Shown piece after piece: positions 1 through 25,483 of a DNA stretch of 42,127 bases (position 1 is the first letter of the stretch; each line of letters opens with the position of its first letter). This stretch comes from a virus. The translations under genes and the position numbers were made by a program. The notes under the pieces are model-generated. The model had not been told where the DNA came from. It ran no database searches and saw only the letters and a list, made by a program, of their open reading frames with translations. Location of the stretch: UHGV virus genome UHGV-0229413; one strand, written 5' to 3'.

Positions 1-148
1 CTTGGAACAGTGATTGCCCTAAAGACAGGATTGGAAGAGGATGTGGAGCTGGAGTGTGAGGATTATTTAGTAGCGGCATGCTTCCCGATACTGCTTTTTG
101 TGGTGTTTTTGGATTGGATAGTGCGGAGATTATGGAGGTGATACAGAT

Positions 149-355
149 ATGAGAGGGACTTTAAAGCACAGACGCGGAAAGAAAGAGATGAAGCAAGACC
201 GTGATGATCATTTTGCTGATCTGGCCGAACATGAACCAACAGAGAATGCCAAAAAGTGGATGCAAAGAGGTGCGTACTCAGTAGAGGACTGCTTAAGAAA
301 ATGGGGAGTAGATACGAAAGGGAGTGTTGCCAGTGGACAAGAAGATACTGATTGA
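149..355 (+). CDS. hypothetical small protein (68 aa)
   Basis: ORF with GGAGGTGA ribosome-binding site 7 nt upstream of ATG; overlaps the start of the next gene; no recognisable domain. Confidence 0.3.
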   Translation: MRGTLKHRRGKKEMKQDRDDHFADLAEHEPTENAKKWMQRGAYSVEDCLRKWGVDTKGSVASGQEDTD

Positions 356-797
356 GTATGCAGACATGAAAGAAGAGATAAAAGATCTGAGACGTAGGAT
401 TGCAGAGGATAAAAAGAAAATAGAGCAACTGAACAAGATTACTGTGCAAGATTCTGTTGCATGTGGAAAGAAAGGCAACAAACCATTGCGAACAGTGAAA
501 ATAACAGGATTCCCACAAAGAGAATATGAAAAACGTGAGTTTTTACTTGAAAAGCGCATTGCAAAGCTGCAGATGTTGGAGACGGATCTTCTGGAGAAAC
601 AGATACAGGTAGAGGAATATATAGAGAAGATAGAAAAGAGCCGTTTAAGAACTATGTTCAGATTATATTACATAGATAATCTAACGTGGGAAATGGTGGC
701 AATGAGGATGAATTACATGTTTCCCAAAAAGCGGATTCCATTCACAAAAGATAGTTGCAGAATAATGCACGAGAGATATCTTGAAAAAGTTTCATAA
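324..797 (+). CDS. putative phage late-gene transcriptional regulator (ArpU/RinA-like, sigma-70 region-4-like C-terminal HTH)
   Basis: ~150 aa; coiled-coil N-terminus; C-terminal 'RTMFRLYYIDNLTWEMVAMRM' HTH-like segment; sits just upstream of the packaging genes; true start probably GTG 333 or ATG 366. Confidence 0.5.
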   Translation: MLPVDKKILIEYADMKEEIKDLRRRIAEDKKKIEQLNKITVQDSVACGKKGNKPLRTVKITGFPQREYEKREFLLEKRIAKLQMLETDLLEKQIQVEEYIEKIEKSRLRTMFRLYYIDNLTWEMVAMRMNYMFPKKRIPFTKDSCRIMHERYLEKVS

Positions 798-927
798 ATG
801 TTCGCCACTGTTCGCTTCAAAGGTGATAATATGGTATAAAGCCAAAAGAAACAATCTGGACGGCTAAGGTGTTTTTAGCTTTCCTCCTAAAAACAACCAG
901 TAAAAACCACACACAAATTATAAAAGG

Positions 928-957
928 CGTCTTGCATGAAAATGCAAGGCGTTTTTT
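928..957 (+). terminator. rho-independent terminator
   Basis: 10-bp stem cgtcttgcat/atgcaaggcg, GAAA loop, then TTTTTT. Confidence 0.6.
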
Positions 958-1242
958 GTACGTTATGTCAATTGTAAAAATAGAACAAATGTTCTATAAT
1001 AATTAAACCGAAACACAACAAGAATGAGATGCAAATTGTTGATAATTGTCAAAATTTGGTATATTATTATTAAAATGTGGTGAGTTTGATAAGGTTTGTG
1101 TGGAGGGATTTTGAATGGATATTGAGAAGATTATCTCAGCTTTACAGATGGAGGGTATACAGAGTAGATGTCGATTATATTTTATTAGAAAAAAGAATAA
1201 CAATTCTTACATAAGTTATTCGCCTTTGATTGAAGAGGGGGG

Positions 1243-2049
1243 GTGGCAGAGCAGCTGATAGAATTAGTGCGGAATTATCTAGAAAAACAAAAAAGATTAC
1301 CAATTACCGAATTTAGCCCAATAGGATCTTATGGTGACATGTTGGAATCTTGCAAAACAGAAGAAATTCAAAATTATCAAGAAGTCATTGAAAGTTTACA
1401 AGAGGATAGAGTGGAAAGGGAGACTATTGGAAACAGTGTGATTAATAAACTAAATTTCTATTGTTTGTCTGTTGACTGTGTTATTGATGGGAGAGAAGAA
1501 AACATTAAATTTTTCCGTAGATTAACAAGATTTAAGAAATTGTCATCTAAAGGTATGTTTGGACAAATAAAAAATAATCGTTTTAGCAAGGTAGAAACAG
1601 AAATGTTGGGTGTAGATGGTGATATTGATACAATCTCAATCGGAAATAGTGTCATTATTTTAAATCATATCGCTCTTGAACGAATATTTTCGATGAATGA
1701 TCAATACATTGAAAAGTCGGAGGAGGCTATTAAAAAAATAGAAGAAGCAAAACGGATTGAGAATTTTGAACAATTTAAGGAAGACTGCAAAAATGATAAA
1801 AGAATAGTAAGAATTCTGACAAGGCTACTCAATGAGGAAAATAGACTTGAACATTGCTTTGAAAATTTTGAAAATGTACAAAAAGCTATAAATATTTTTG
1901 AGTTGGGTATACATACCGGTATGCAAGGGGGCAAACAGACTGTTATCTACGAAGACAAACATCAACTTATGGATATGGTCCGTTTAATTCGGGATTCGTA
2001 TTATACAAGTATTATCAGGGAGAGACACGGAGTTGATGACTCAATTTGA
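1243..2049 (+). CDS. hypothetical soluble protein (268 aa), first gene of AT-rich moron
   Basis: GTG start after a GA/G-rich ribosome-binding site; no TM segment, no P-loop, no motif I recognise; markedly AT-rich codon usage compared with flanking phage genes. Confidence 0.6.
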   Translation: MAEQLIELVRNYLEKQKRLPITEFSPIGSYGDMLESCKTEEIQNYQEVIESLQEDRVERETIGNSVINKLNFYCLSVDCVIDGREENIKFFRRLTRFKKLSSKGMFGQIKNNRFSKVETEMLGVDGDIDTISIGNSVIILNHIALERIFSMNDQYIEKSEEAIKKIEEAKRIENFEQFKEDCKNDKRIVRILTRLLNEENRLEHCFENFENVQKAINIFELGIHTGMQGGKQTVIYEDKHQLMDMVRLIRDSYYTSIIRERHGVDDSI

Positions 2050-2063
2050 TAGGAGGAGATGTA

Positions 2064-2636
2064 ATGAATAAAATCAATTTTAATATAATGAAAATTAAAA
2101 TGTTTATTACATCATATTTTCCGCTATACATTATTTTATTAGCACTTCAAATAAAAAAATATCCGATAGTATTTAATATAGATGCGATATTTGTGCCGGC
2201 AACGATATTTGCAACGGTTTTGATAGTTTTTATATCAATATCCATAACGAGCACAATTGATTTATTTGTGACTTGTAGTCATGAATCATATAGATATCAG
2301 TCAATAGATCGAACTGGAGATGCTGTAGTGTCATACTTGATGACATATGTAGTACCACTGTTATCTGAATCATTTCTGACATATAATGGATTTATAATAA
2401 ATACAGCTCTTTTTATATTAATAGGAATAATGTATATTAAATTAGATTTGATATATTTTAATCCGACGTGGATTATTTTGGGATATGCTGTATACACAAC
2501 AGAAAAAGGAGATCTGATAATAAGCAATATTCCATACGGAGTATTAAAACAAAATATCGGAAATCATTTAAAAAGCAGTTATCTGGTCAAAGGTGTGTAT
2601 CTGATCCAAAAAAAAGATAATTTAAATCACATATAA
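2064..2636 (+). CDS. hypothetical integral membrane protein (~190 aa, 4-5 predicted TM helices), second gene of moron
   Basis: AGGAGG at 2052-2057 then ATG 2064, immediately after the stop of the upstream gene (translational coupling); long hydrophobic stretches. Confidence 0.6.
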   Translation: MNKINFNIMKIKMFITSYFPLYIILLALQIKKYPIVFNIDAIFVPATIFATVLIVFISISITSTIDLFVTCSHESYRYQSIDRTGDAVVSYLMTYVVPLLSESFLTYNGFIINTALFILIGIMYIKLDLIYFNPTWIILGYAVYTTEKGDLIISNIPYGVLKQNIGNHLKSSYLVKGVYLIQKKDNLNHI

Positions 2637-2654
2637 AAATTTATATAATAGAGG

Positions 2655-2679
2655 AAGCACTCCCTTTGGGGTGCTTTTC
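2655..2679 (+). terminator. rho-independent terminator (bulged stem)
   Basis: agcac(t)ccc / ggggtgct stem, TTT loop, then TTTTCC. Confidence 0.5.
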
Positions 2680-2729
2680 CAATACATAAAACCTCTCATT
2701 CTTCACATACTATATCTGAGGTGAGGAAA

Positions 2730-2876
2730 ATGGATAAGAAGGATCAAGAGAAGTCAAACAGAAAGAAAAGCAATGAAAAATTCAACAGCATTACTCAAAA
2801 GGTAAAGCCGGAGAATCAGAACCAGCGTCATAATGCCAGAAAAGAGGCAGTTGATGTGAAGATGAGACAAATGTAA
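2730..2876 (+). CDS. small Lys/Arg/Asn-rich protein (48 aa), standalone gene
   Basis: GGTGAGGAAAA ribosome-binding site then ATG; MDKKDQEKSNRKKSNEKFNS...; has its own downstream terminator; not in the ORF track because under 60 aa. Confidence 0.4.
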   Translation: MDKKDQEKSNRKKSNEKFNSITQKVKPENQNQRHNARKEAVDVKMRQM

Positions 2877-2899
2877 GACGTCCATTAGGGCGTCTTTTC
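2876..2899 (+). terminator. rho-independent terminator
   Basis: agacgtcc / gggcgtct stem (one G:U pair), ATTA loop, TTTT run. Confidence 0.55.
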
Positions 2900-2913
2900 T
2901 AATACAAAAATAT

Positions 2914-2987
2914 GGATACATAACTCAATCGGTCAGAGCGGCAGCCTTATAAGCTGTGTGTCACGGGTTCGATTCCCGTTGTCCGGA
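2914..2987 (+). tRNA. tRNA-like sequence, possibly pseudo-tRNA or att remnant; anticodon loop reads UAU
   Basis: good T-arm acggg-TTCGATT-cccgt, anticodon arm gcagc-cttataa-gctgt, D-arm with GG; but the acceptor stem 'ggataca'/'tgtccgg' pairs at only 3 of 7 positions. Confidence 0.3.
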
Positions 2988-3095
2988 TTGTGGACTACTG
3001 CAAGTTCCTACTTGTGTTAGAGAATCCGGTAAAGTTGCCAAGTTACGTATTTTTTGCATTAGTCCTATAAATTTTAAAAACCTCAGAGAAAAGTG

Positions 3096-3124
3096 TTGAC
3101 ATATGGTTAACCATATGGTATTAT
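3096..3124 (+). promoter_or_regulatory. sigma-70/SigA-type promoter (TTGACA, 17-nt spacer, extended -10 TGgTATTAT)
   Basis: consensus -35 at 3096-3101, 17-nt spacer, TATTAT at 3119-3124 preceded by TG; drives the small-peptide/RHH cluster. Confidence 0.55.
3100..3117. promoter_or_regulatory. 18-bp perfect palindrome catatggttaaccatatg filling the promoter spacer (putative operator)
   Basis: exact dyad symmetry between -35 and -10. Confidence 0.5.
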
Positions 3125-3149
3125 ATACTTGTAAGGAGGTGAGATACAG

Positions 3150-3272
3150 ATGAGCAAGAAACGAAAGAAAAAGAAAAACTCCATAGATTGGATTGAAGTG
3201 CTGGTTCAAACAATCGTAGGAGTTGTTTCTGGAGTGATAGCCGGAGTTATTACATGGCTTATCACAAAATAG
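3150..3272 (+). CDS. small membrane peptide (40 aa): poly-Lys N-terminus plus a single TM helix
   Basis: AAGGAGGTG ribosome-binding site, ATG, MSKKRKKKKNSIDWIEVLVQTIVGVVSGVIAGVITWLITK; type-I-toxin/holin-like architecture. Confidence 0.45.
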   Translation: MSKKRKKKKNSIDWIEVLVQTIVGVVSGVIAGVITWLITK

Positions 3273-3344
3273 TAAGATACAGGAGAGGCGGAAAAGCCTC
3301 TCTTGTATAAATAATATAGCACATAGGCTCATCTGTGTAAAGCT

Positions 3345-3446
3345 ATGAGAATAGAAGTGATAGTAGCAATTGTTGTGGCTGTGACAGCAGGATTGATAGC
3401 AGGAAAATTATATCGTAAGTGGAGGGATGAACATGCCGGTAGGTAG
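3345..3446 (+). CDS. small membrane peptide (33 aa): TM helix plus basic C-terminus
   Basis: MRIEVIVAIVVAVTAGLIAGKLYRKWRDEHAGR; weak ribosome-binding site; overlaps the start of the downstream RHH gene. Confidence 0.3.
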   Translation: MRIEVIVAIVVAVTAGLIAGKLYRKWRDEHAGR

Positions 3447-3636
3447 CCCAAAACCTCAAACGATTGCATCGGAGAAGTATCAAAAGAAAGCAGGATGGAT
3501 GACAAAGGGTTTCAAGATAAAGCGAGAGTTAGCGGATGAATTTGCAGAAGCATGTGAAACCGCAGGAGTCAGTCAGGCTTCAAAGATCAGCGAACTTATG
3601 AAAGGATTCATAGAGGAAGTGAATAGTGAGAAATAG
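3433..3636 (+). CDS. ribbon-helix-helix (CopG/MobC-like) small DNA-binding protein
   Basis: GGAGGG ribosome-binding site; beta-strand 'KGFKIK' followed by two helices 'RELADEFAEACETAGVSQASKISELMKGFIEEV'; alternative start ATG 3427. Confidence 0.5.
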   Translation: MPVGSPKPQTIASEKYQKKAGWMTKGFKIKRELADEFAEACETAGVSQASKISELMKGFIEEVNSEK

Positions 3637-3641
3637 TAGAG

Positions 3642-3670
3642 AGCATCTGGTGAAAGCCAGGTGCTTTTCT
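3642..3670 (+). terminator. rho-independent terminator
   Basis: agcatctgg / ccaggtgct stem, TGAAAG loop, TTTTCT. Confidence 0.5.
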
Positions 3671-3737
3671 GCGTCCTGAGCAAAGACGATAAAAGGCTTT
3701 GGGCAAAAGCCTACAGTGTGCGATATCGCACAAATAT

Positions 3738-3809
3738 AGCAGGATAGAGCAGTGGAAGCTCGTCAGTCTCCTTAGCTGAAGGTCGGAGGTTCGATTCCTT
3801 CTCCTGCAA
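3738..3809 (+). tRNA. tRNA-Arg (anticodon CCU), phage-encoded
   Basis: cloverleaf: acceptor 6/7 bp, D-arm gagc-agtggaa-gctc, anticodon arm tcagt-cuCCUua-gctga, T-arm ggagg-TTCGATT-ccttc, discriminator A, no encoded CCA. Confidence 0.6.
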
Positions 3810-3822
3810 TCGAGGTGATTAT

Positions 3823-4161
3823 ATGACAGAACATGAGATTGCATTTGTAAAGAAATGTATAAGAGAAAATATCCACAGATTCTATACATGGGGCAAGTGG
3901 AAAGCATTAAGAGAACAGGTACTACAGCTTGATAAATATGAATGCCAGTTATGTAAGAAACGTGGAAAGTATACAAAGGCAACGACGGTTCATCATATGA
4001 ATTATGTAAAGAAGCATCCAGACAAGGCATTGGAAATCTGGTACAGCTTCAGAGGCGAGAAGCGGAGAAACCTAATCAGCCTGTGCCATGATTGTCATGA
4101 AGAGGTTCATGGATATCGAAAGCCAAAGAAAAAAGAACCGCTGACAGAAGAAAGATGGTAA
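3823..4161 (+). CDS. HNH homing-type endonuclease (packaging-associated)
   Basis: CxxC...HH...CxxCH motifs (CQLCKK...VHHMNY...CHDCHEEVH); directly upstream of terminase. Confidence 0.85.
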   Translation: MTEHEIAFVKKCIRENIHRFYTWGKWKALREQVLQLDKYECQLCKKRGKYTKATTVHHMNYVKKHPDKALEIWYSFRGEKRRNLISLCHDCHEEVHGYRKPKKKEPLTEERW

Positions 4162-4230
4162 AGAAAAATAAAATTGTCAGGATACCCCCGGTCGAAAAAA
4201 ATCGGGTTTTAATATGCCCCGTAGAGACCG

Positions 4231-4620
4231 GTGGGTGCTCCCGACAAAAGAAATTTCTCGTGCGCGCGTGACGGAGGGGGTGGTATAAGGGCGAGAAAAA
4301 CAAGAAAAGAATTATTGCGAGTGGAAATTAAAGAGGACCTTCTTGATCAGCTGGCCCGGAATGGAACCACAGGGAAATATTACATCGACTTGGTCGATAA
4401 ATATATGGACTTCTGGGACCTGGAGAACGAACTGATCGCAGACATTAAAAAGAGAGGCGCTATCGTTGAATATAATAATGGAGGAGGTCAAAAAGGGCAA
4501 AAGAAAAATGACTCGATAGATCAGAGAATTAAGGTCAATGCTCAAATGCTTAAAATACTGGACAGTCTAGGAATTAAGCCGGTTGGCGATGATTCGGGAG
4601 ATGATGAAGATGAGCTGTAA
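4231..4620 (+). CDS. terS: terminase small subunit (P27-like)
   Basis: position, size, basic N-terminus and acidic tail ...DDSGDDEDEL; true start probably internal (~4284-4320; GGAGGGGG ribosome-binding site at 4271). Confidence 0.65.
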   Translation: MGAPDKRNFSCARDGGGGIRARKTRKELLRVEIKEDLLDQLARNGTTGKYYIDLVDKYMDFWDLENELIADIKKRGAIVEYNNGGGQKGQKKNDSIDQRIKVNAQMLKILDSLGIKPVGDDSGDDEDEL

Positions 4621-6295
4621 CATACATCCATATATTCAGGAATGGATCGACATAGTTGAGAAAAAAATCTATGCAGTATGCGAAGAGCAGGAGCTGCTTG
4701 TCGCGCATGTAAAATGGTGTTTTGAGCATGAAGATATTTATATAGATTGTGATCAGTTGGAGAAATATATCGGGATGTCAAAATACTTCCCGTTTGAAGA
4801 AATATTTCCCTGGCAGAAGTTTGTGATCGGACTGCACGATTGCACATATTGGAGAGAATCCGGGCTTCCAAGATGGCCGGATTTATTCTGTATGTTGGGG
4901 AGAGGAGCGGGAAAAGATGGTACAATTGCGCTCGAATCAGTGTGTTTAATGTCCCCGCATAATGGAATCAGAGAGTACGATGTAGATATCTGTGCAAATA
5001 ATGAGGACCAGGCAATGCGTCCAGTCCATGACGTGATAAACGCATTTGAACGACCGTCTGTGATAAAGAAATTAAAGAAATTCTTCCGATGGACGAAAGA
5101 ACAGGTTTTATGCTTGAAAACAAAGTCTATTATGAAGGGAAGAACAAACAGTCCGAAAGGAAAAGACGGTCTTCGTTCTGGAATCTGTATTTTTAATGAG
5201 ATCCATCAATATGAAGACTATAAGAATATAAACGTCTTTACGACAGGACTTGGTAAGAAGAAACATCCAAGACGTTCTTACTACACGACAAATGGTGATG
5301 TGCGGGAAGGACCGCTGGATGATCTGCTGGAAACTTCCGAACAGATCTTACGGGGTGGCGAACCGGATAATGGGTTATTACCATTTATCTGTAAATTGAA
5401 TAAAAAGGAAGATGTGGATCAGGAAGAAAACTGGCCAATGGCAAATCCATCGTTGCCATATCTGCCAAGTCTTATGGAAGAGATCAGGAAAGAATACAGG
5501 GAATGGAAGAAAAATCCGAGAAGACTTCCGGCATTTATGACAAAACGAATGAATATTCCGGAAAATGCGGAAGAAATGAGTGTAACGGAGTGGGACAATA
5601 TCAAAGCGACCAACATCTTACTGCCGGATCTGGAAAGATGGAGCTGTGTATGTGGAATTGACTATACAAAATTAACAGATTGGGCTTCCGTAGATCTTCA
5701 TTTCCGAGATGGAGATGAACGGTTTGACATCAGCCATTCATGGATGTGCCTAAATTCGAAAGACATTACGAGGATCAAGGCTCCATGGAAAGAATGGGCG
5801 GATTCCGGAAGACTGACGCTTGTAGATGACGTGGAAATACATCCGTCATTGCTTACAAATTATATACAGGAAGCAAAACGCACCTACAATATCAAAGCTT
5901 TGGCCTTGGATGATTTCCGTTTTGCATTGATCGGAAAATATCTGCAGGAAATAGGCTTTGATATGAAAGTAAATAAGAATCTGAAGCTGATCCGGCCATC
6001 AGACATTATGAAAGTGGCACCTCTGATCGATAGCTGCTTTGTAAATAAATGGTTGCGGTGGGGAGATGCTCCAGAATTAAGGTGGGCCACCAATAATGCA
6101 AAACTAATCAGGCATGGAAGAAAACCAGGAAAAGAGGATGATGCCGATATGGGAAATTATGTATATGGAAAAATAGAAGGAAAAAGCAGAAAAACAGACC
6201 CATTTATGGCATTTGTAGCAGCGATGACTGTAGAAAACGTGCTGCCGCAGAAACGGGCAAAACCAACACCGAAAATACAGGTTTACAGTTATTAA
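4601..6295 (+). CDS. terL: terminase large subunit (Terminase_1 family)
   Basis: Walker A GRGAGKDG, nuclease C-terminal domain; ATG cluster 4601/4604/4610 overlaps the terS stop. Confidence 0.9.
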   Translation: MMKMSCNIHPYIQEWIDIVEKKIYAVCEEQELLVAHVKWCFEHEDIYIDCDQLEKYIGMSKYFPFEEIFPWQKFVIGLHDCTYWRESGLPRWPDLFCMLGRGAGKDGTIALESVCLMSPHNGIREYDVDICANNEDQAMRPVHDVINAFERPSVIKKLKKFFRWTKEQVLCLKTKSIMKGRTNSPKGKDGLRSGICIFNEIHQYEDYKNINVFTTGLGKKKHPRRSYYTTNGDVREGPLDDLLETSEQILRGGEPDNGLLPFICKLNKKEDVDQEENWPMANPSLPYLPSLMEEIRKEYREWKKNPRRLPAFMTKRMNIPENAEEMSVTEWDNIKATNILLPDLERWSCVCGIDYTKLTDWASVDLHFRDGDERFDISHSWMCLNSKDITRIKAPWKEWADSGRLTLVDDVEIHPSLLTNYIQEAKRTYNIKALALDDFRFALIGKYLQEIGFDMKVNKNLKLIRPSDIMKVAPLIDSCFVNKWLRWGDAPELRWATNNAKLIRHGRKPGKEDDADMGNYVYGKIEGKSRKTDPFMAFVAAMTVENVLPQKRAKPTPKIQVYSY

Positions 6296-6331
6296 GGGGG
6301 TGAATGTAGGAAATTAAGTATTAAAGACTGG

Positions 6332-7495
6332 TTGATCAAAAAACTTGGAGGCAGCAGTACCACAAGGATCACAGTGGATGACATTATGAAAGATAAAGAT
6401 GTACAGAGTGCTATGTACGAAGTGTGTCTGAGAGAGCTGGCTTTCTGGACTTGCGTCAATAAAATTGCAAATGCCATCAGCAAATGCGAATTTAAAACGT
6501 ATATCAAAAAGAAAGAAGTAAAAGGACAGGAGTATTATCTTTGGAATTACGAACCAAATCAGAACCAGAATGCAACATCATTCATGAATAAGCTGATTGG
6601 CAAGCTGTACCGGAACAATGAATGCCTTGTGGTAGAAGTAAACAATCACATTTATGTGGCAGACAGTTACAGCAAAGAGGTGCTGGCATTGAAGGAGTAC
6701 AGATTCAGCGGGATTACATTTGACGGTTACGAATTGTCTGAAACGCGGGAAATGTCGGAAGTCATGTTTTTCGAATTAAATTCAGAGAATATGAGGAATC
6801 TCACAAATGGGATGTATGAAACGTATTCAAAATTACTGATATATGCGCAGGATGCCTATAAAAAATCAAGAGGAAAAAAAGGAATCCTGAATATTGGAGC
6901 AATTGCACAGGAAAGTGAGAATTTCGATGAAACATTCCAGGAGTTGATGAGCACGCATTTTAAGAACTTCTTTGAAAGCGACAGTGCGGTGTTGCCATTG
7001 TTTGACGGATACGAATATCAGGATATTTCAGAAAGCGGAAAGACGTATTCTGCAGAGTCAACACGAGATATCAAGTCTTTAGCTGATGACATCTTTGAAT
7101 TTACAGCAAGAGCATTTTCTTTCCCACCGAGTCTGGCCAAAGGAGATGTACAGGATACAGGGAAAGCGATTGATGAACTTCTGACCTTTGTGATAGATCC
7201 GCTCATTAAGATGCTGCAGCAGGAGATCAACCGAAAGAGAAATGGATACACAGGATTTAAAGCTGGAAATTATGTGAAGATAGAGACTCTGGCAGTCAAG
7301 CATATTGATATTTTTGATATTGCAACTCCAGTAGATAAGCTGATCTCAAGCGGAGCATTTACGATCAATGATATTTTGGAAGTGCTCGGAAAACCGAGAA
7401 TTGAAGAAGACTGGGCAAACCAGCACTTTATGACGAAAAATTATAGTAAGATTCAAGACCTGCTTGCAGGATTGGATATAGAAACCACAGAGTGA
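6332..7495 (+). CDS. portal protein
   Basis: 387 aa, immediately after terL, typical portal composition; start (TTG 6332 or internal ATG) uncertain. Confidence 0.8.
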   Translation: MIKKLGGSSTTRITVDDIMKDKDVQSAMYEVCLRELAFWTCVNKIANAISKCEFKTYIKKKEVKGQEYYLWNYEPNQNQNATSFMNKLIGKLYRNNECLVVEVNNHIYVADSYSKEVLALKEYRFSGITFDGYELSETREMSEVMFFELNSENMRNLTNGMYETYSKLLIYAQDAYKKSRGKKGILNIGAIAQESENFDETFQELMSTHFKNFFESDSAVLPLFDGYEYQDISESGKTYSAESTRDIKSLADDIFEFTARAFSFPPSLAKGDVQDTGKAIDELLTFVIDPLIKMLQQEINRKRNGYTGFKAGNYVKIETLAVKHIDIFDIATPVDKLISSGAFTINDILEVLGKPRIEEDWANQHFMTKNYSKIQDLLAGLDIETTE

Positions 7496-7532
7496 AAGGG
7501 GTGAGACAAGGAAAAACATAACAAACTGGAGA

Positions 7533-8258
7533 ATGCAGCCTGTTCAGGCAGAGAACAAAACACTTCTGTACATTTATGATGATGTGACAGAATATGGAGA
7601 ATTTGACTGGAACGCATGGGAATATAAGGACTCGGAGACTTCTGCAAAATATTTTGCAGAGAAACTGAGTGAAATTCCAGAAGGACAGACAATTGAGCTG
7701 CATATCAACTCAAATGGCGGATCCGTAAAAGAGGGCGTTGCTATTTACAATTTACTGAAGCAAAAACAAAACCAGAAAGTCGGGATTGTGGATGGCGTAG
7801 CACACAGTGTTGCGTTTTTGATTCTACAGGCGTGTGACACAAGAAAAATGTGTTTAGGTACAACGGCACTGATACACAATATGTGGATGTATTGCTCAGG
7901 CAATGCAACACAACTGAGAAAATATGCAGATGATCTGGATGACATGATGGAAGCAAACCGGCAAGTTTTTCTGGAAAGGGCGAAGATTGAGGAAAGTGAG
8001 TTGATTGAGTTAATGGAAAATGAGACTTACCTCACTCCGGAAAAGGCGCTGGAATATGGACTCATTGATGAGATCATGGGAAAGACAGCAGAACCGGTCA
8101 ATACAGAAGAGATTCTGGAGAAGCTGTCCGATATGCAAAGACAGTTAAACAGTCAGGAGAGCTTCCGGCAGCAGATTGCAGCAATGCAGAAACCACAGGA
8201 AGACAAGAAACCAAGAAAAAACAATGTATTAAATCTTTTTAGAGGAGGCATGATTTAA
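7533..8258 (+). CDS. ClpP-like (S14) prohead protease
   Basis: 'INSNGGSV...GVAHSVAFLIL' ClpP-type serine nucleophile region; sits between portal and capsid. Confidence 0.8.
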   Translation: MQPVQAENKTLLYIYDDVTEYGEFDWNAWEYKDSETSAKYFAEKLSEIPEGQTIELHINSNGGSVKEGVAIYNLLKQKQNQKVGIVDGVAHSVAFLILQACDTRKMCLGTTALIHNMWMYCSGNATQLRKYADDLDDMMEANRQVFLERAKIEESELIELMENETYLTPEKALEYGLIDEIMGKTAEPVNTEEILEKLSDMQRQLNSQESFRQQIAAMQKPQEDKKPRKNNVLNLFRGGMI

Positions 8259-23180: not shown

Positions 23181-23648
23181 ATGAAGAAAATGAATTATGC
23201 AGAACCAATTATTGATGTTTATAATGCGATTGTAGGAACGGTCGTTGCTGTTCTCTCGTACATCCTCGGAGAACATTGGATTTTATTTGTAGCATTTTTG
23301 CTTTTAAATATTGCTGATTGGATAACAGGATGGATGAAGAGCAGAATGGCTAAGAAAGAAAATTCTGTTAAAGGATGGAAAGGCGTATTAAAGAAATTAG
23401 GGTACTGGTTGATGATTATGGTAGCATTTGGAGCAAGTGCAGTATTCATAGAAATAGGAAAGACTATCGGAGTAGATTTACAGGTTACAACATTACTTGG
23501 ATGGTTTGTACTTGCAAGCTTGCTTATTAACGAGATTAGATCGATCTTGGAAAATTTTGTAGAAGCTGGATTAAATGTGCCAGTTGTTCTTATCAAAGGA
23601 TTAGAAGTTGCAGATAAGTTGGTAAATAAAGACGATAATACTAAATAA
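23181..23648 (+). CDS. holin (phage_holin_4 / TcdE-like)
   Basis: 155 aa, three TM segments, charged C-terminus; immediately before the endolysins. Confidence 0.8.
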   Translation: MKKMNYAEPIIDVYNAIVGTVVAVLSYILGEHWILFVAFLLLNIADWITGWMKSRMAKKENSVKGWKGVLKKLGYWLMIMVAFGASAVFIEIGKTIGVDLQVTTLLGWFVLASLLINEIRSILENFVEAGLNVPVVLIKGLEVADKLVNKDDNTK

Positions 23649-23739
23649 TGAATGTTTATGGAATGGGGGTGGTTCCAATGTGTGTATAAATATAGAAACT
23701 CGTAAATAAGTAAAGAATAGATTATGGAGGTATTATTTT

Positions 23740-24597
23740 ATGGCAAATTTAGAACAATTCATTCAAAATATGATAAACATGTGTAATGACAATTCATATG
23801 GCTATCGTCTCGGAGGATGGGGACCAAAGGATTACGATTGTGCAAGCTCCATCATAACAGCATTGCGAAATGCTGGATTTGATACTGGATCAGCTACATA
23901 TACAGGCAATATGGCAGCAGAGCTTTGTGCGAGAGGATGGACAAGACTGTCAGTTGGCACTTCATTGAACAGAGGAGATATTCTTCTAAATGAAGTGAAT
24001 CATGTGGCATTATATGTAGGTAATAACCAGCTGGCTGAATTTTCTTCTGATTACGATGGAGTTTCAGGAGACAGCAGCGGAAAAGAAGCGAGTGTGCATG
24101 GGTATTATAATTTCCCGTGGGATTGTATTTTGAGATATAAAGGCAACACAGAAACGGAAGAAATTAAGAATGTACATTTATATGAATGGAACGGGGGAGA
24201 TAATCAGCGGTGGAAGCTGATAAAGGACACAGATGGATTCTATGAAATGCAGTGCAAAGGAAATGGTCTGTTTTTGGATGTACATGAAGGTAAAGATGAG
24301 AATGGACAGAATGTTGTAGCCTATAAAAGGAATGGAACAAATGCTCAGAAATGGAAGATAATTCCAGTAAATGATTCAATATTAGGGAATTTTGCGTTTG
24401 AACTCGCTCCGAAAATCAATACAAATAAGCGTTTGGATGTGTTTGGAAATGGAGTAGACAACCATACAAATATCGATATTTATGATACAAATGGTTCAGA
24501 TGCGCAGCGTTTTTACATGAGACCAATCGGAGAGGGCTATTATCAGATTATCAATATCAACAGTTTAAAATCTGTTGATGGAGGCGGAATCTTATAA
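23740..24597 (+). CDS. endolysin: N-terminal Cys-His peptidase/amidase (CHAP/Amidase_5-like) plus C-terminal ricin-B lectin (beta-trefoil, QxW repeats)
   Basis: 'GPKDYDCASS...NHVALYVG...YYNFPWDCILRYK'; three repeats with NQRWKL / AQKWKI / AQRFYM. Confidence 0.8.
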   Translation: MANLEQFIQNMINMCNDNSYGYRLGGWGPKDYDCASSIITALRNAGFDTGSATYTGNMAAELCARGWTRLSVGTSLNRGDILLNEVNHVALYVGNNQLAEFSSDYDGVSGDSSGKEASVHGYYNFPWDCILRYKGNTETEEIKNVHLYEWNGGDNQRWKLIKDTDGFYEMQCKGNGLFLDVHEGKDENGQNVVAYKRNGTNAQKWKIIPVNDSILGNFAFELAPKINTNKRLDVFGNGVDNHTNIDIYDTNGSDAQRFYMRPIGEGYYQIININSLKSVDGGGIL

Positions 24598-24653
24598 TAG
24601 TGAAAAGAGAGCTTGGAAACAGGCTCTCTTTTATTATGCAAGGAGGTGAGAAC

Positions 24654-24740
24654 ATGAGCGAACAGAACGAATTTGGCAGAGTATCCGCAGAGGAACTGGA
24701 AAAGGTATTTGAGACAGAAGAACAGGAGGAACAGGAGTAA
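24654..24740 (+). CDS. tiny acidic ORF (28 aa) between the lysin genes
   Basis: GGAGGTGAGAAC ribosome-binding site then ATG; stop overlaps the amidase start (TAATG). Confidence 0.25.
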   Translation: MSEQNEFGRVSAEELEKVFETEEQEEQE

Positions 24741-25483
24741 TGAGTATCTGTAGAGGAATTGCCGGCAGGAGAGGGAAGAATCCTGTCGGTATTTTTATCC
24801 ACAATGATGCAGGTGGCAATTCTCTGAATGCAGCTTATTGGGCTAATTCTTTAGCAAATGGTAGTCAGAACAAAGAAAAAGGGTTCGCTCACGCATATTG
24901 CGGTAGCGATGGTGTTAGGCAGGTAGAGGATGACGCAAACTGTGCTTGGCATTGCGGAAATACAGACGGCAATATAAATTACCTGAGCATCGAAGTTTGT
25001 CAGAGTATGGGAGATTTGAACACATTTAAAGCAAATGAGGAGCGCGCTTTACAGTGGTGCGCTCAAAAGTGTAAGCAATATGGAATCACGCCTAATGAAA
25101 ACACAATCCGATTGCATCAGGAAGTGTTTGCAACCGCTTGTCCGCACAGATCAGTGGAGATTCACGGCGGTGCAGCGCAGACAAAAGCCTATTTTATTAA
25201 CCGTATCAAGGAGCTTATGAACGGAAACCAAAGCACAACGACAGATCAGGAAGGAGTAGAGGATATGCAGTGTATGTTTACAGTAGAGGGAAAAGGATGT
25301 GTTTATTGGATGCATGATGGAGTGGTTACAGCTTTAGCACACCCTGACGAGTTAAAAATCATTCAGCAAATTTATAAGGATAACTTTGGAAAGGATATGC
25401 CATGCTACAGTTGGGGGAAAAGTGCACCATGGCATGTGAGACTAATAAACCCATTGTATCGGGATCCAGTCAAAACCATCTAA
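24740..25483 (+). CDS. N-acetylmuramoyl-L-alanine amidase (Amidase_2 / PGRP fold) endolysin
   Basis: 'IFIHNDAGG', 'LSIEVCQ', 'ACPHRS' zinc-amidase motifs. Confidence 0.85.
   Translation: MSICRGIAGRRGKNPVGIFIHNDAGGNSLNAAYWANSLANGSQNKEKGFAHAYCGSDGVRQVEDDANCAWHCGNTDGNINYLSIEVCQSMGDLNTFKANEERALQWCAQKCKQYGITPNENTIRLHQEVFATACPHRSVEIHGGAAQTKAYFINRIKELMNGNQSTTTDQEGVEDMQCMFTVEGKGCVYWMHDGVVTALAHPDELKIIQQIYKDNFGKDMPCYSWGKSAPWHVRLINPLYRDPVKTI

Follow-up and report, generated by a model that had tools for sequence, protein, structure and literature searches.

What does a short gene cluster, lying between the late activator and the packaging genes of a temperate gut phage and left almost without annotation, contribute to the phage that carries it? 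The cluster was studied in UHGV virus genome UHGV-0229413, a DNA stretch of 42,127 nucleotides that is referred to here as the window and that represents a complete temperate siphophage genome with terminase, structural genes, integrase and a CI-like repressor. It consists of a sense promoter, the genes for two tiny peptides (pep1 and pep2), a gene for a putative ribbon-helix-helix (RHH) protein and a terminator of its own, in this order, and is hereafter called the cassette. The reading that we favour, with moderate confidence and from comparison of related sequences, is that the cassette is a moron resembling the Arc/Pant/sar region of phage P22, which adds RNA control of the type I toxin kind and would deliver a capped dose of a membrane-active peptide pair.

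The initial annotation of the locus had described a promoter with a palindromic spacer, two small open reading frames (ORFs) and an RHH gene between two transfer RNA (tRNA) genes, and all of these elements were found again at the same positions. The comparison drew on 61 viral loci, to which 41 from Lachnospiraceae genomes and additional viral ones were added; the parts of each locus were extracted by script. The unit of promoter, palindrome, pep1, pep2 and RHH gene recurred in approximately 150 loci, with RHH identities down to 45%, showing that the region is kept as a unit, as the initial annotation had proposed to check. Among 161 RHH genes, pep1 was detected beside 140, pep2 beside 144 and both peptides beside 130, and most of the apparent absences represent filter misses or truncated contigs. 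Thus, the association of these elements extends far beyond chance. All counts given below for modules refer to 76 unique modules and those for operators to 72 unique combinations of operator and RHH protein. The hosts are phages of Mediterraneibacter (Ruminococcus) gnavus and related Lachnospiraceae, in which the cassette is nearly unannotated. In the cultured R. gnavus phage phiRgPS_6, the block from tRNA to terminator is 94% identical to that of the window while the flanking genes differ; the phiRgPS_6 record annotates the RHH gene alone (gp58, as RHH), and the paper describing this phage does not discuss the cassette region. A literature search retrieved neither a prior description of the cassette nor expression data in R. 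gnavus phages.

The sense promoter (3096-3124, plus strand) is composed of TTGACA (3096-3101), a 17-nt spacer and the extended -10 element TGgTATTAT (3116-3124), with the TG at 3116-3117 and TATTAT at 3119-3124. It is an 11/12 match and the top sigma-70 match in positions 1-8000 of the window, with a predicted transcription start near 3131, and promoter scores of 10-12 out of 12 were obtained for nearly all unique combinations of operator and RHH protein. An A/T-rich tract with the A-run GAAAAGTG, abutting the -35 element on the same strand (3066-3095), is a candidate UP element, and an A-run such as gaaaaagt(g/a) is located 5' of TTGACA in most related loci. The spacer holds the perfect 18-bp palindrome CATATGGTTAACCATATG (3100-3117), which overlaps the last two nucleotides of the -35 element and the TG of the extended -10 element. 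The near-consensus promoter with its palindromic spacer was thereby confirmed as first described. The palindrome is present in one copy in the 42-kb window, where 0.04 matches would be expected at three mismatches or fewer. No further copies or half-sites beyond chance were found in the window, nor was the half-site enriched, so that the RHH protein has no other evident target in the phage.

Comparison of the operators across loci linked the palindrome to the protein encoded at the other end of the cassette. Sixty-four of the 72 operators had at most two mismatched arm pairs, as compared to 0.24% of random 18-mers, and four distinct perfect palindromes were observed, which differ symmetrically in both arms (CATAAGG..CCTTATG, CATAGGG..CCCTATG, ..GGTGCACC..). 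The central four bases of the operator corresponded to residues 28 and 29 in the beta-strand of the RHH protein: the centres TTAA and TAAA were accompanied by G-F in 43 of 46 combinations, TGCA and TACA by S-Y or T-Y in 16 of 16, TATA, TAGA and ATAA by S-F in 6 of 7, and the ATAC centre of the ACGTATACGT operator by T-Y in 3 of 3. The mutual information between operator centre and these two residues was 1.29 bits, as compared to 0.26 +/- 0.06 bits after permutation. Six loci (L021-L025 and L071) contain an unrelated palindrome, ACATACGTATACGTATGT, which is paired with a divergent RHH protein of its own (beta-strand PKTYK) encoded directly after pep2. The match between operator and RHH protein was maintained across payload types A, B, C and others, all of which lie between the two elements, and the cultured phage Villandry, with an RHH protein only 39% identical, has a TACA-centred operator-like spacer together with an SKSY strand. 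The joint swap, the match across payloads and the Villandry pair indicate a correspondence that exceeds mere linkage. Thus, the palindrome probably acts as an operator, for which the RHH protein of the cassette is the most likely binder, in line with the candidate role that the initial annotation had given to both; autorepression of the cassette promoter by this protein is well supported by the comparison.

The loci with the second palindrome also contain a further arrangement. In L021-L025 (for example at 2420-3204 of L025), L071 and L072, two RHH genes are found in tandem. The module of the second specificity is complete; behind it come the C-terminal remnant of an old pep2 with two membrane helices (..DVVPRQWKEWKKCR) and then an orphan RHH gene of the window type, which lacks a cognate operator in the locus. 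These loci look like the recombination scar of a cassette replacement.

The RHH gene (3433-3636, plus strand) encodes 67 amino acids (aa), and its first 14 nt are shared with the end of pep2. Its Shine-Dalgarno (SD) sequence, GGAGGG (3421-3426, plus strand), is located inside the pep2 coding sequence, and an SD of its own precedes the gene in 72 of the 76 modules. The gene proposed in the initial annotation is present, with the correction that its start is the conserved ATG at 3433 (MPVGSP...) rather than the ATG at 3427. The protein displays the sequence pattern of the RHH fold: a conserved N-terminal arm of about 25 residues (PQTIASEKYQKKAG) is followed by the beta-strand TKGFKIK, helix A (RELADEFAEACETA), a G-V-S turn and helix B (QASKISELMKGFIEEV). 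Residues F27, F37, G45 and S47, among others, are invariant or nearly so among 28 homologues. A total of 433 homologues of about 65-75 aa were found, almost none of them usefully named, and the exact sequence is present on more than 1000 contigs, M. gnavus chromosomes included. Differences among the homologous genes amounted to 5290, 3863 and 13755 at codon positions 1, 2 and 3. The weak profile matches all lie in register (RepB-RCR_reg, RHH_1, RHH_5, RelB, ParG and Arc), and the best Foldseek matches in the PDB are all RHH proteins, namely ParG, Arc, CopG and CopA_SO, at E-values of 3-10, with 33-36% identity to the Arc fold over about 33 residues. We regard the cassette regulator as a divergent RHH protein that resembles ParG in its long, conserved N-terminal arm and is predicted to bind DNA.

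A few loci depart from this organization. In L057 and L059 (3001-3456), the RHH protein bears a fused C-terminal extension of about 85 aa and reaches 151 aa in total; in L058, two ORFs take up this region, one for a 65-aa RHH protein and a separate one downstream. In Clostridium phage Villandry (ON453902; L156, 1207-1675), the RHH-homologous frame has no start codon and lies in frame behind the TGA of an upstream 96-aa ORF, which could be a stop-codon read-through fusion, a nonsense mutation or a pseudogene. In a Lachnospiraceae genome (L090, 2086-2917), a CRISPR-like array (repeat GTCGCGTCCCGTGTGGGCGCGTGGATTGAAAT, period of about 67 nt) ends about 80 nt 5' of an RHH homologue and occupies the usual place of the promoter and the peptides; similar repeat-derived ORFs were observed in L101.

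The first peptide gene, pep1 (3150-3272, plus strand), is preceded by a 10-nt SD, AAGGAGGTGA (3133-3142, plus strand), and encodes 40 aa with a polybasic N-terminus (MSKKRKKKK) and one transmembrane (TM) helix containing a GxxxGxxxG motif. A strong SD was located before every detected pep1, the SD having belonged to the detection criteria. From the positive-inside rule, the predicted topology is N-in and C-out. The 58 unique variants, of 35-45 aa, fall into at least three body types, with GxxxGxxxG in that of the window and with glycine zippers being frequent, and in all of them the polybasic N-terminus is followed by one TM helix reaching almost to the C-terminus; five relatives of the window type had been called as proteins in a large protein collection. 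The second gene, pep2 (3345-3446, plus strand), encodes 33 aa, in which an N-terminal TM helix precedes a basic cytoplasmic tail (KLYRKWRDEHAGR). Its 73 unique variants have either one TM helix (25-43 aa) or two (49-65 aa), each with a basic tail. No SD was found at functional spacing before pep2 in any of the 76 modules.

Both ORFs carry the signature of translated sequence. Differences at codon positions 1, 2 and 3 were 448, 239 and 713 for pep1 and 485, 303 and 1021 for pep2, and the changes were frequently synonymous (435 synonymous and 579 non-synonymous changes in pep1, 728 and 649 in pep2). With this excess at the third position, the two small ORFs of the initial annotation hold up as genes, and the comparison supports the view that pep1 and pep2 are real protein-coding genes for co-inherited membrane peptides. 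The types are combined in a fixed manner: pep1 of type A is found with the 1-TM form of pep2 (20 modules), type B with the 2-TM form (18) and type C with the 1-TM form (28), suggesting that pep2 is the partner of pep1 and that the two peptides may act together. Sub-threshold matches of the peptides, for example to the LydA holin and to an FeoB-associated protein, were rejected as functional evidence, being driven by TM composition. A search with PADLOC gave no match for pep1, pep2 or the RHH protein. In one locus (L015, 2677-2859), a frameshift after MSKKRKKK turns pep1 into a non-hydrophobic ORF of 60 aa, with no damage to the promoter, pep2 or the RHH gene; pep1 has either been knocked out naturally or been misassembled.

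The start of pep1 is predicted to be paired over a long distance with the spacer in front of pep2. The 5' strand of this helix, AUACAGAUGAGC (3144-3155, plus strand), holds the pep1 AUG at 3150, and the 3' strand, GCUCAUCUGUGU (3327-3338, plus strand), an element that would be directed against the translation initiation region, ends 6 nt before the pep2 AUG. Across loci the helix has 10-12 bp, with the 3' element 4-9 nt 5' of the pep2 AUG, and its two sides change jointly, as in AAAGAUGGCGA/UCGCCAUCUUU, GACAUGAAAGG/UCUUUCGUGUC, GCCGAUGAUAA/UUAUUAUCGGC, ACAGAUGGGA/(A)CCCAUCUG(A), CAGAAAUGAG/CUCAUUUCUG and ACAAAUGAGC/GCUCAUUUGU. The free energy (dG) of pairs from the same locus was -15.7 kcal/mol as compared to -11.5 kcal/mol for pairs mixed between loci, a value reached in none of 20000 permutations. 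On a MAFFT alignment, which was not fitted to the structure, 81% of the cells pair, whereas slid registers gave 31-45%; double-sided changes were observed in 34 cells as compared to 11.4 in shuffles, and none of 500 shuffles reached the covariation score. The minimum free energy fold of the window sequence (-76.6 kcal/mol, z = -8.8) contains the helix, as do 73 of the 76 full-length folds, with the pep2 AUG unpaired in 57 of these 73 and the pep1 SD mostly free. In several lineages, G-U pairs substitute for Watson-Crick pairs, which points to pairing in the sense-strand RNA rather than to a site in the DNA, and a reading of the inverted repeat (3146-3155 and 3327-3336) as DNA sites for protein binding is disfavoured on this ground. 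The helix over the pep1 start codon is thus supported by covariation, and we infer that it would act on translation. A local hairpin burying the pep2 AUG, as in a two-state toggle, was seen in the window and rejected, the median z across modules being -0.08 relative to shuffled sequences.

A convergent promoter is located in the spacer between the two peptide genes. On the minus strand, TTTACA (3341-3336), a 17-nt spacer and TGc TATATT (3321-3313) make up a 10/12 match with TG (3313-3341), with a predicted start at about 3306, from where transcription would read across pep1 toward the sense promoter. Scores of at least 9/12 were obtained in 91% of the 76 modules as compared to 13-33% of controls, and at least 10/12 in 62% as compared to 0-3%; the TG extension is present in 63% (0-1% in controls) and the 17-nt spacer in 65 of 76 modules. 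The antisense promoter is supported by this conservation, and an antisense RNA across pep1 is its predicted product. The predicted start coincides with the base of a hairpin just 3' of the pep1 stop codon (3277-3308, plus strand), with a 13-bp stem, the loop GGAAAA and no U-tract. This hairpin has at least six pairs in 69 of 76 modules, with a median dG of -18.3 kcal/mol and a GAAA loop in 47 of 76; its stems differ in sequence among loci and the T content downstream is low. It was rejected as an intrinsic terminator, no type having a U-tract, and we consider it a conserved RNA structure instead. As a terminator for the antisense RNA it was inconsistent as well: candidates of any sort were detected in 31 of 76 modules at scattered positions, and no conserved antisense terminator was found. 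The long-range helix, the SD-less pep2 and the conserved antisense promoter are new relative to the initial annotation.

The cassette is an accessory element. It is always located between a late activator, of the RinA or phrog_36 type, and the genes for HNH, terS and terL, while the genes that flank it belong to different families in different phages. It is absent from the sibling phages phiRg507T2_3 and RG-TP1, which have 86-97% identical RinA proteins; the slot contains two tRNAs and a zinc-ribbon ORF in phiRg507T2_3, and RG-TP1 runs nearly straight into terS. A core phage function was therefore rejected. The shell of promoter, operator and RHH gene also surrounds other payloads, among them soluble ORFs of 96 aa in Villandry and of 43 aa in L102 and, in L094, a coiled-coil protein of 140 aa with a membrane anchor. 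In the window itself, the same slot contains a complete Kiwa defence system (1243-2636), with promoter-like sites at 972-1000 and 1039-1067. KwaB (1243-2049) was identified by PADLOC (2e-91) and Pfam (PF16162, 5e-31) and KwaA (2046-2636) by PADLOC (2e-45); the two genes overlap in the order kwaB then kwaA, which is opposite to the usual order in Kiwa systems. Most loci, the window included, have an intrinsic terminator after the RHH gene (GCATCTGG-TGAAAG-CCAGGTGC, then TTTTCT; 3640-3670, plus strand; dG of about -32 kcal/mol including flanks). The cassette thus has a promoter (3096-3124) and a terminator (3640-3670) of its own and is present or absent among related phages, as is characteristic of morons, and the variable payloads, the Kiwa system in the same slot and the siblings without a cassette fit a moron in a cargo hotspot.

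Based on these results we propose the following sequence of events. In the absence of the RHH protein, the sense promoter would fire strongly and transcription of pep1, pep2 and the RHH gene would stop at the terminator of the cassette. As the RHH protein accumulates, it would bind the palindrome in the spacer and repress its own operon, as does P22 Arc at Pant, so that a burst of expression upon entry of the DNA into a repressor-free cell would be followed by a low, self-limited level. After about 180 nt of further transcription, the long-range helix would close and bury the pep1 AUG; pep1 would then be translated from the open mRNA alone, mainly during transcription, with the antisense transcript as a further brake, while pep2 and the RHH protein would be made from the folded mRNA. 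That pep1 is under three separate restraints suggests a dose-sensitive, membrane-active effector, which is probably harmful, and pep2 is likely to be the cognate partner of this effector or to modulate it. The cassette most likely acts at the membrane to the benefit of the prophage or of an infection, for instance through phage exclusion, abortive infection or a takeover of the host. Comparison supports the following parts of this proposal: the pairing of operator and RHH protein, the protein-coding nature of both peptide genes, the long-range helix, the promoter on the antisense strand and the accessory character of the cassette.

The control shell most resembles the immI region, or ant moron, of P22 (arc, mnt and sar), in which the operator of Arc is located between the -35 and -10 elements of Pant. 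In both P22 and the cassette, a strong sigma-70 promoter is placed under a small RHH protein of the same operon and a convergent promoter in an intercistronic spacer drives an antisense RNA, the repression and the RNA being predictions in the case of the cassette. Both are independently expressed insertions in or beside the late operon, a region of high flux (PMC2629481). The cassette differs in its order, with the payload first and the RHH gene last whereas arc comes first in P22; in its payload, two tiny membrane peptides instead of an antirepressor; and in the lack of a second, Mnt-like repressor. The predicted antisense RNA covers the first cistron, whereas that of P22 covers the ribosome-binding site of the downstream gene. 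The long-range mRNA helix and the Gram-positive Lachnospiraceae host are likewise without counterpart in P22. A second likeness is to operons of anti-CRISPR (acr) and associated (aca) genes, in which a strong promoter with an inverted-repeat operator is repressed by the downstream Aca, giving a burst upon DNA entry and then a shut-off. As in these operons, small exchangeable payloads are combined with a downstream autorepressor acting, as predicted for the cassette, on an inverted repeat in the promoter, and the shell of the cassette swaps its payloads. The usual payload, however, consists of membrane peptides, which are unlikely Cas inhibitors, and the RNA-level controls have no acr-aca counterpart; no matches to Acr or Aca families were found for the cassette.

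Several points weigh against this interpretation. Membership of the RHH family is sub-threshold by sequence: no curated RHH profile matched above its gathering cut-off in Pfam (RepB-RCR_reg E 0.04, RHH_1 0.009, RHH_5 0.02, in a few members), hhalign gave probabilities of 5% against Arc and 20% against ParG, and the AlphaFold monomer (pLDDT 78) renders the beta-strand as helix, with residues 8-44 forming one helix. The covariation of operator and RHH protein is inflated by shared ancestry, with only about 330 bp between the two elements; the payload swaps, however, speak against linkage as the sole cause. Neither pep1 nor pep2 matches a toxin, holin or defence family above noise in Pfam, PHROGs, NCBIfam or PADLOC. 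The shell alone does not imply toxicity, given the soluble payloads that it also contains, and negative autoregulation would suit harmless cargo too. With no consistent antisense terminator, the antisense transcript is putative, as is its length.

A tentative extension, in which we place low confidence, concerns the translation of pep2. The SD of pep1 (3133-3142) may serve pep1 first and, once the helix has closed, the SD-less pep2 AUG (3345), which would then lie beside it across the helix base, so that the ribosome-binding site would be split across a translated ORF of about 170 nt. The helix would leave 4-6 nt to the pep1 SD at one end and 4-9 nt to the pep2 AUG at the other, giving a sum of 8-16 nt, a spacing that is permissive but loose. 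Split ribosome-binding sites are known from genes 38 and 25 of phage T4, where RNA structure brings a distant SD near the start codon (PMC3014915). The T4 structures are hairpins of 17-22 nt, whereas the cassette would enclose about 170 nt with a whole translated ORF. If it exists, such a switch would give a pulse of pep1 and then pep2, with the RHH protein, from each transcript, thereby fixing their order and ratio.

Of the other explanations, we consider a type I toxin-antitoxin addiction module that stabilizes the prophage unlikely. Here pep1 would be the toxin and the antisense RNA from the 3341-3313 promoter the labile antitoxin, and the helix would keep the full mRNA inert until it is processed back to the 3277-3308 hairpin, as in hok/sok. 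In the mRNAs of type I toxins, a long-distance interaction between the 5' and 3' ends blocks initiation of translation, and features such as those of the cassette define type I loci in T1TAdb (PMC8594479). Pep1 is small and hydrophobic, its start region is under a covarying long-range lock, the antisense promoter is conserved, and the stable hairpin without U-tract after the pep1 stop could shield a processed 3' end. Like hok/sok, aapA1/IsoA1, fst and txpA/RatA, the cassette combines a putative small hydrophobic single-TM peptide with a candidate cis-encoded convergent antisense promoter and has an mRNA structure of the kind that blocks toxin initiation. The helix, however, hides the AUG and leaves the SD free, and its 3' strand is located inside a polycistronic mRNA instead of at the mRNA 3' end. 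The sense promoter is near-consensus, whereas type I toxin promoters are usually weaker than the antitoxin promoters. No conserved antisense terminator was found, pep1 has no similarity to known type I toxin families, and the same shell holds non-membrane payloads elsewhere. A protein autorepressor and a second conserved peptide are foreign to type I systems, and it is because of their presence that the cassette does not qualify as one. Thus, the type-I-like architecture suggested in the initial annotation has gained the covarying helix and the conserved antisense promoter in its favour and is opposed by the other members of the operon.

We regard as improbable that the peptides are secondary and that the cassette, as part of the late operon leader, mainly gates transcription. 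In this case read-through to the HNH and terminase genes would be modulated by the RHH protein on its operator, by the promoter that fires in the opposite direction and by the terminators; with the sole candidate late promoter upstream, the polymerase would have to traverse the cassette to reach them. The constant location between late activator and packaging genes agrees with such a role. In phiRgPS_6, the HNH gene begins about 15 nt after the RHH terminator, leaving no space for a promoter before it, and tandem activator-type boxes are found just after the regulator gene alone (799-815 in the window; TTGTCC three times in phiRgPS_6). For the ant moron of P22, a similar effect on tailspike expression has been proposed (PMC2629481). 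Against a gate, sibling phages package without the cassette, and the purifying selection on both peptides and their fixed pairs would be needless for it; the assignment of the late promoter is itself inferred.

A holin/antiholin or other lysis-timing pair under RHH control, also raised in the initial annotation, is very improbable. Pep2, especially in its 2-TM form, combines TM helices with a basic cytoplasmic C-terminus behind them, a hallmark of holins, and pep1 weakly matched the holin profiles PF16083 (E 0.007) and phrog_785 (E 0.019), matches that fall well short of the threshold and reflect TM composition. A holin (23181-23648) and an endolysin (24740-25483) of the phage itself are encoded within 23181-25483, about 20 kb from the cassette; the cassette has a putatively self-repressed sigma-70 promoter instead of late control, and it is missing from closely related lytic-competent phages, among them the siblings with the same RinA. 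A holin function was dismissed because of the location, the control and the dispensability of the cassette.

Highly unlikely, too, is a switch with convergent promoters after the manner of prgQ/prgX in plasmid pCF10, in which pep1, resembling a signal peptide, would be the precursor of a peptide secreted for communication. In pCF10, convergent promoters 223 nt apart are combined with a small peptide ORF, the IRS1 hairpin and the Anti-Q RNA (PMC3181467). The cassette likewise has promoters about 200 nt apart around a small basic-then-hydrophobic ORF and a hairpin, with scope for interference and antisense regulation, and the pep1 bodies form discrete types while the flanks are about 94% identical. 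The regulator is a 67-aa RHH protein encoded on the sense strand, whereas PrgX is encoded on the antisense strand; the hairpin has no U-tract; and neither an RRNPP-type receptor nor a peptide-binding domain is encoded nearby. Pep1 ends one or two residues past the TM helix without a cleavage motif, and the covariation of its types with those of pep2 fits a membrane complex better than pherotypes. Finally, that the small ORFs are non-genic and the 300 nt from promoter to RHH gene form a structured non-coding leader regulating the latter is scarcely credible: the strong structure (z = -8.8), the missing SD of pep2 and the near absence of window-type pep1 from called proteins would fit, whereas both ORFs are open in about 130 loci despite heavy sequence turnover, show third-position excess and synonymous changes in the proposed frame only and always encode TM helices, with a perfect 10-nt SD before pep1.

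The surroundings of the cassette were inspected as well. Its location between tRNA-Ile(TAT) (2913-2986) and tRNA-Arg(CCT) (3737-3811), to which the initial annotation had drawn attention, is incidental: depending on the locus, the tRNA on the upstream side is for Ile, Asn, Trp or Met or is missing, and the downstream tRNA-Arg is present in a subset, and a functional link of the cassette to the tRNAs was rejected because of this variation. An Rfam scan of positions 2600-4300 (E <= 1) retrieved the two tRNAs and no other RNA family. About 20 nt 3' of the upstream tRNA (GTGGACTACTGCAAG..TTCC; 2987-3010 in the window, 3385-3410 in L154, 2305-2330 in L025) are conserved irrespective of the tRNA (Ile or Asn) and even in the absence of the cassette; this stretch could be a recombination joint or a signal for tRNA 3' processing. 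Just 5' of tRNA-Ile (2721-2900), a very basic, hydrophilic ORF of 51 aa (MRKMDKKDQEKSNRKK...) is followed by a clean terminator (2877-2900); the ORF had no family match and recurs in several related loci at 90-100% identity. Between rinA and the first tRNA, phiRgPS_6 (L001, about 2700-2800) and L154 (2960-3050) have a hairpin and a terminator-like element (CACCGCCGGAC...GTCTGGCGGTGTTTC), and phiRgPS_6 also carries a tRNA-like T-arm fragment there (GCGGGTTCGAACCCCGC), which ARAGORN did not call. Directly after the phrog_36 regulator gene (324-797), two tandem TGTTCGC boxes (799-815) are found that occur nowhere else in the window; the boxes (within 799-835) are followed by the -10-like GATAAT and then by a strong terminator (about 924-956). 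In phiRgPS_6 (L001, about 2629-2680), three TTGTCC boxes and a -10-like sequence are located directly after rinA. These tandem boxes could be activator-dependent late promoters, and if so, late transcription would have to cross about 3 kb and several terminators, the cassette included, to reach HNH and terS.

The cassette is widespread in temperate phages of Lachnospiraceae that are abundant in the human gut, including M. gnavus, a species linked to inflammatory bowel disease, and its peptides are essentially unannotated. It would combine several layers of control in a compact form: autorepression, a lock on a start codon, a convergent promoter and an SD-less cistron. The correspondence between operator centres and residues 28 and 29 represents a natural recognition table for RHH proteins, which is directly testable and could serve orthogonal repressor/operator pairs for Clostridia; with phiRgPS_6 and its host, a cultured phage and strain exist for experiments. 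The shared use of one SD, if true, would be a new way of ordering the translation of two genes on one mRNA. The Kiwa system beside the cassette marks the interval between late activator and terminase as a cargo hotspot in these phages, and the slot that the peptide pair shares with it makes the pair a candidate for a new effector of exclusion, abortive infection or host takeover.

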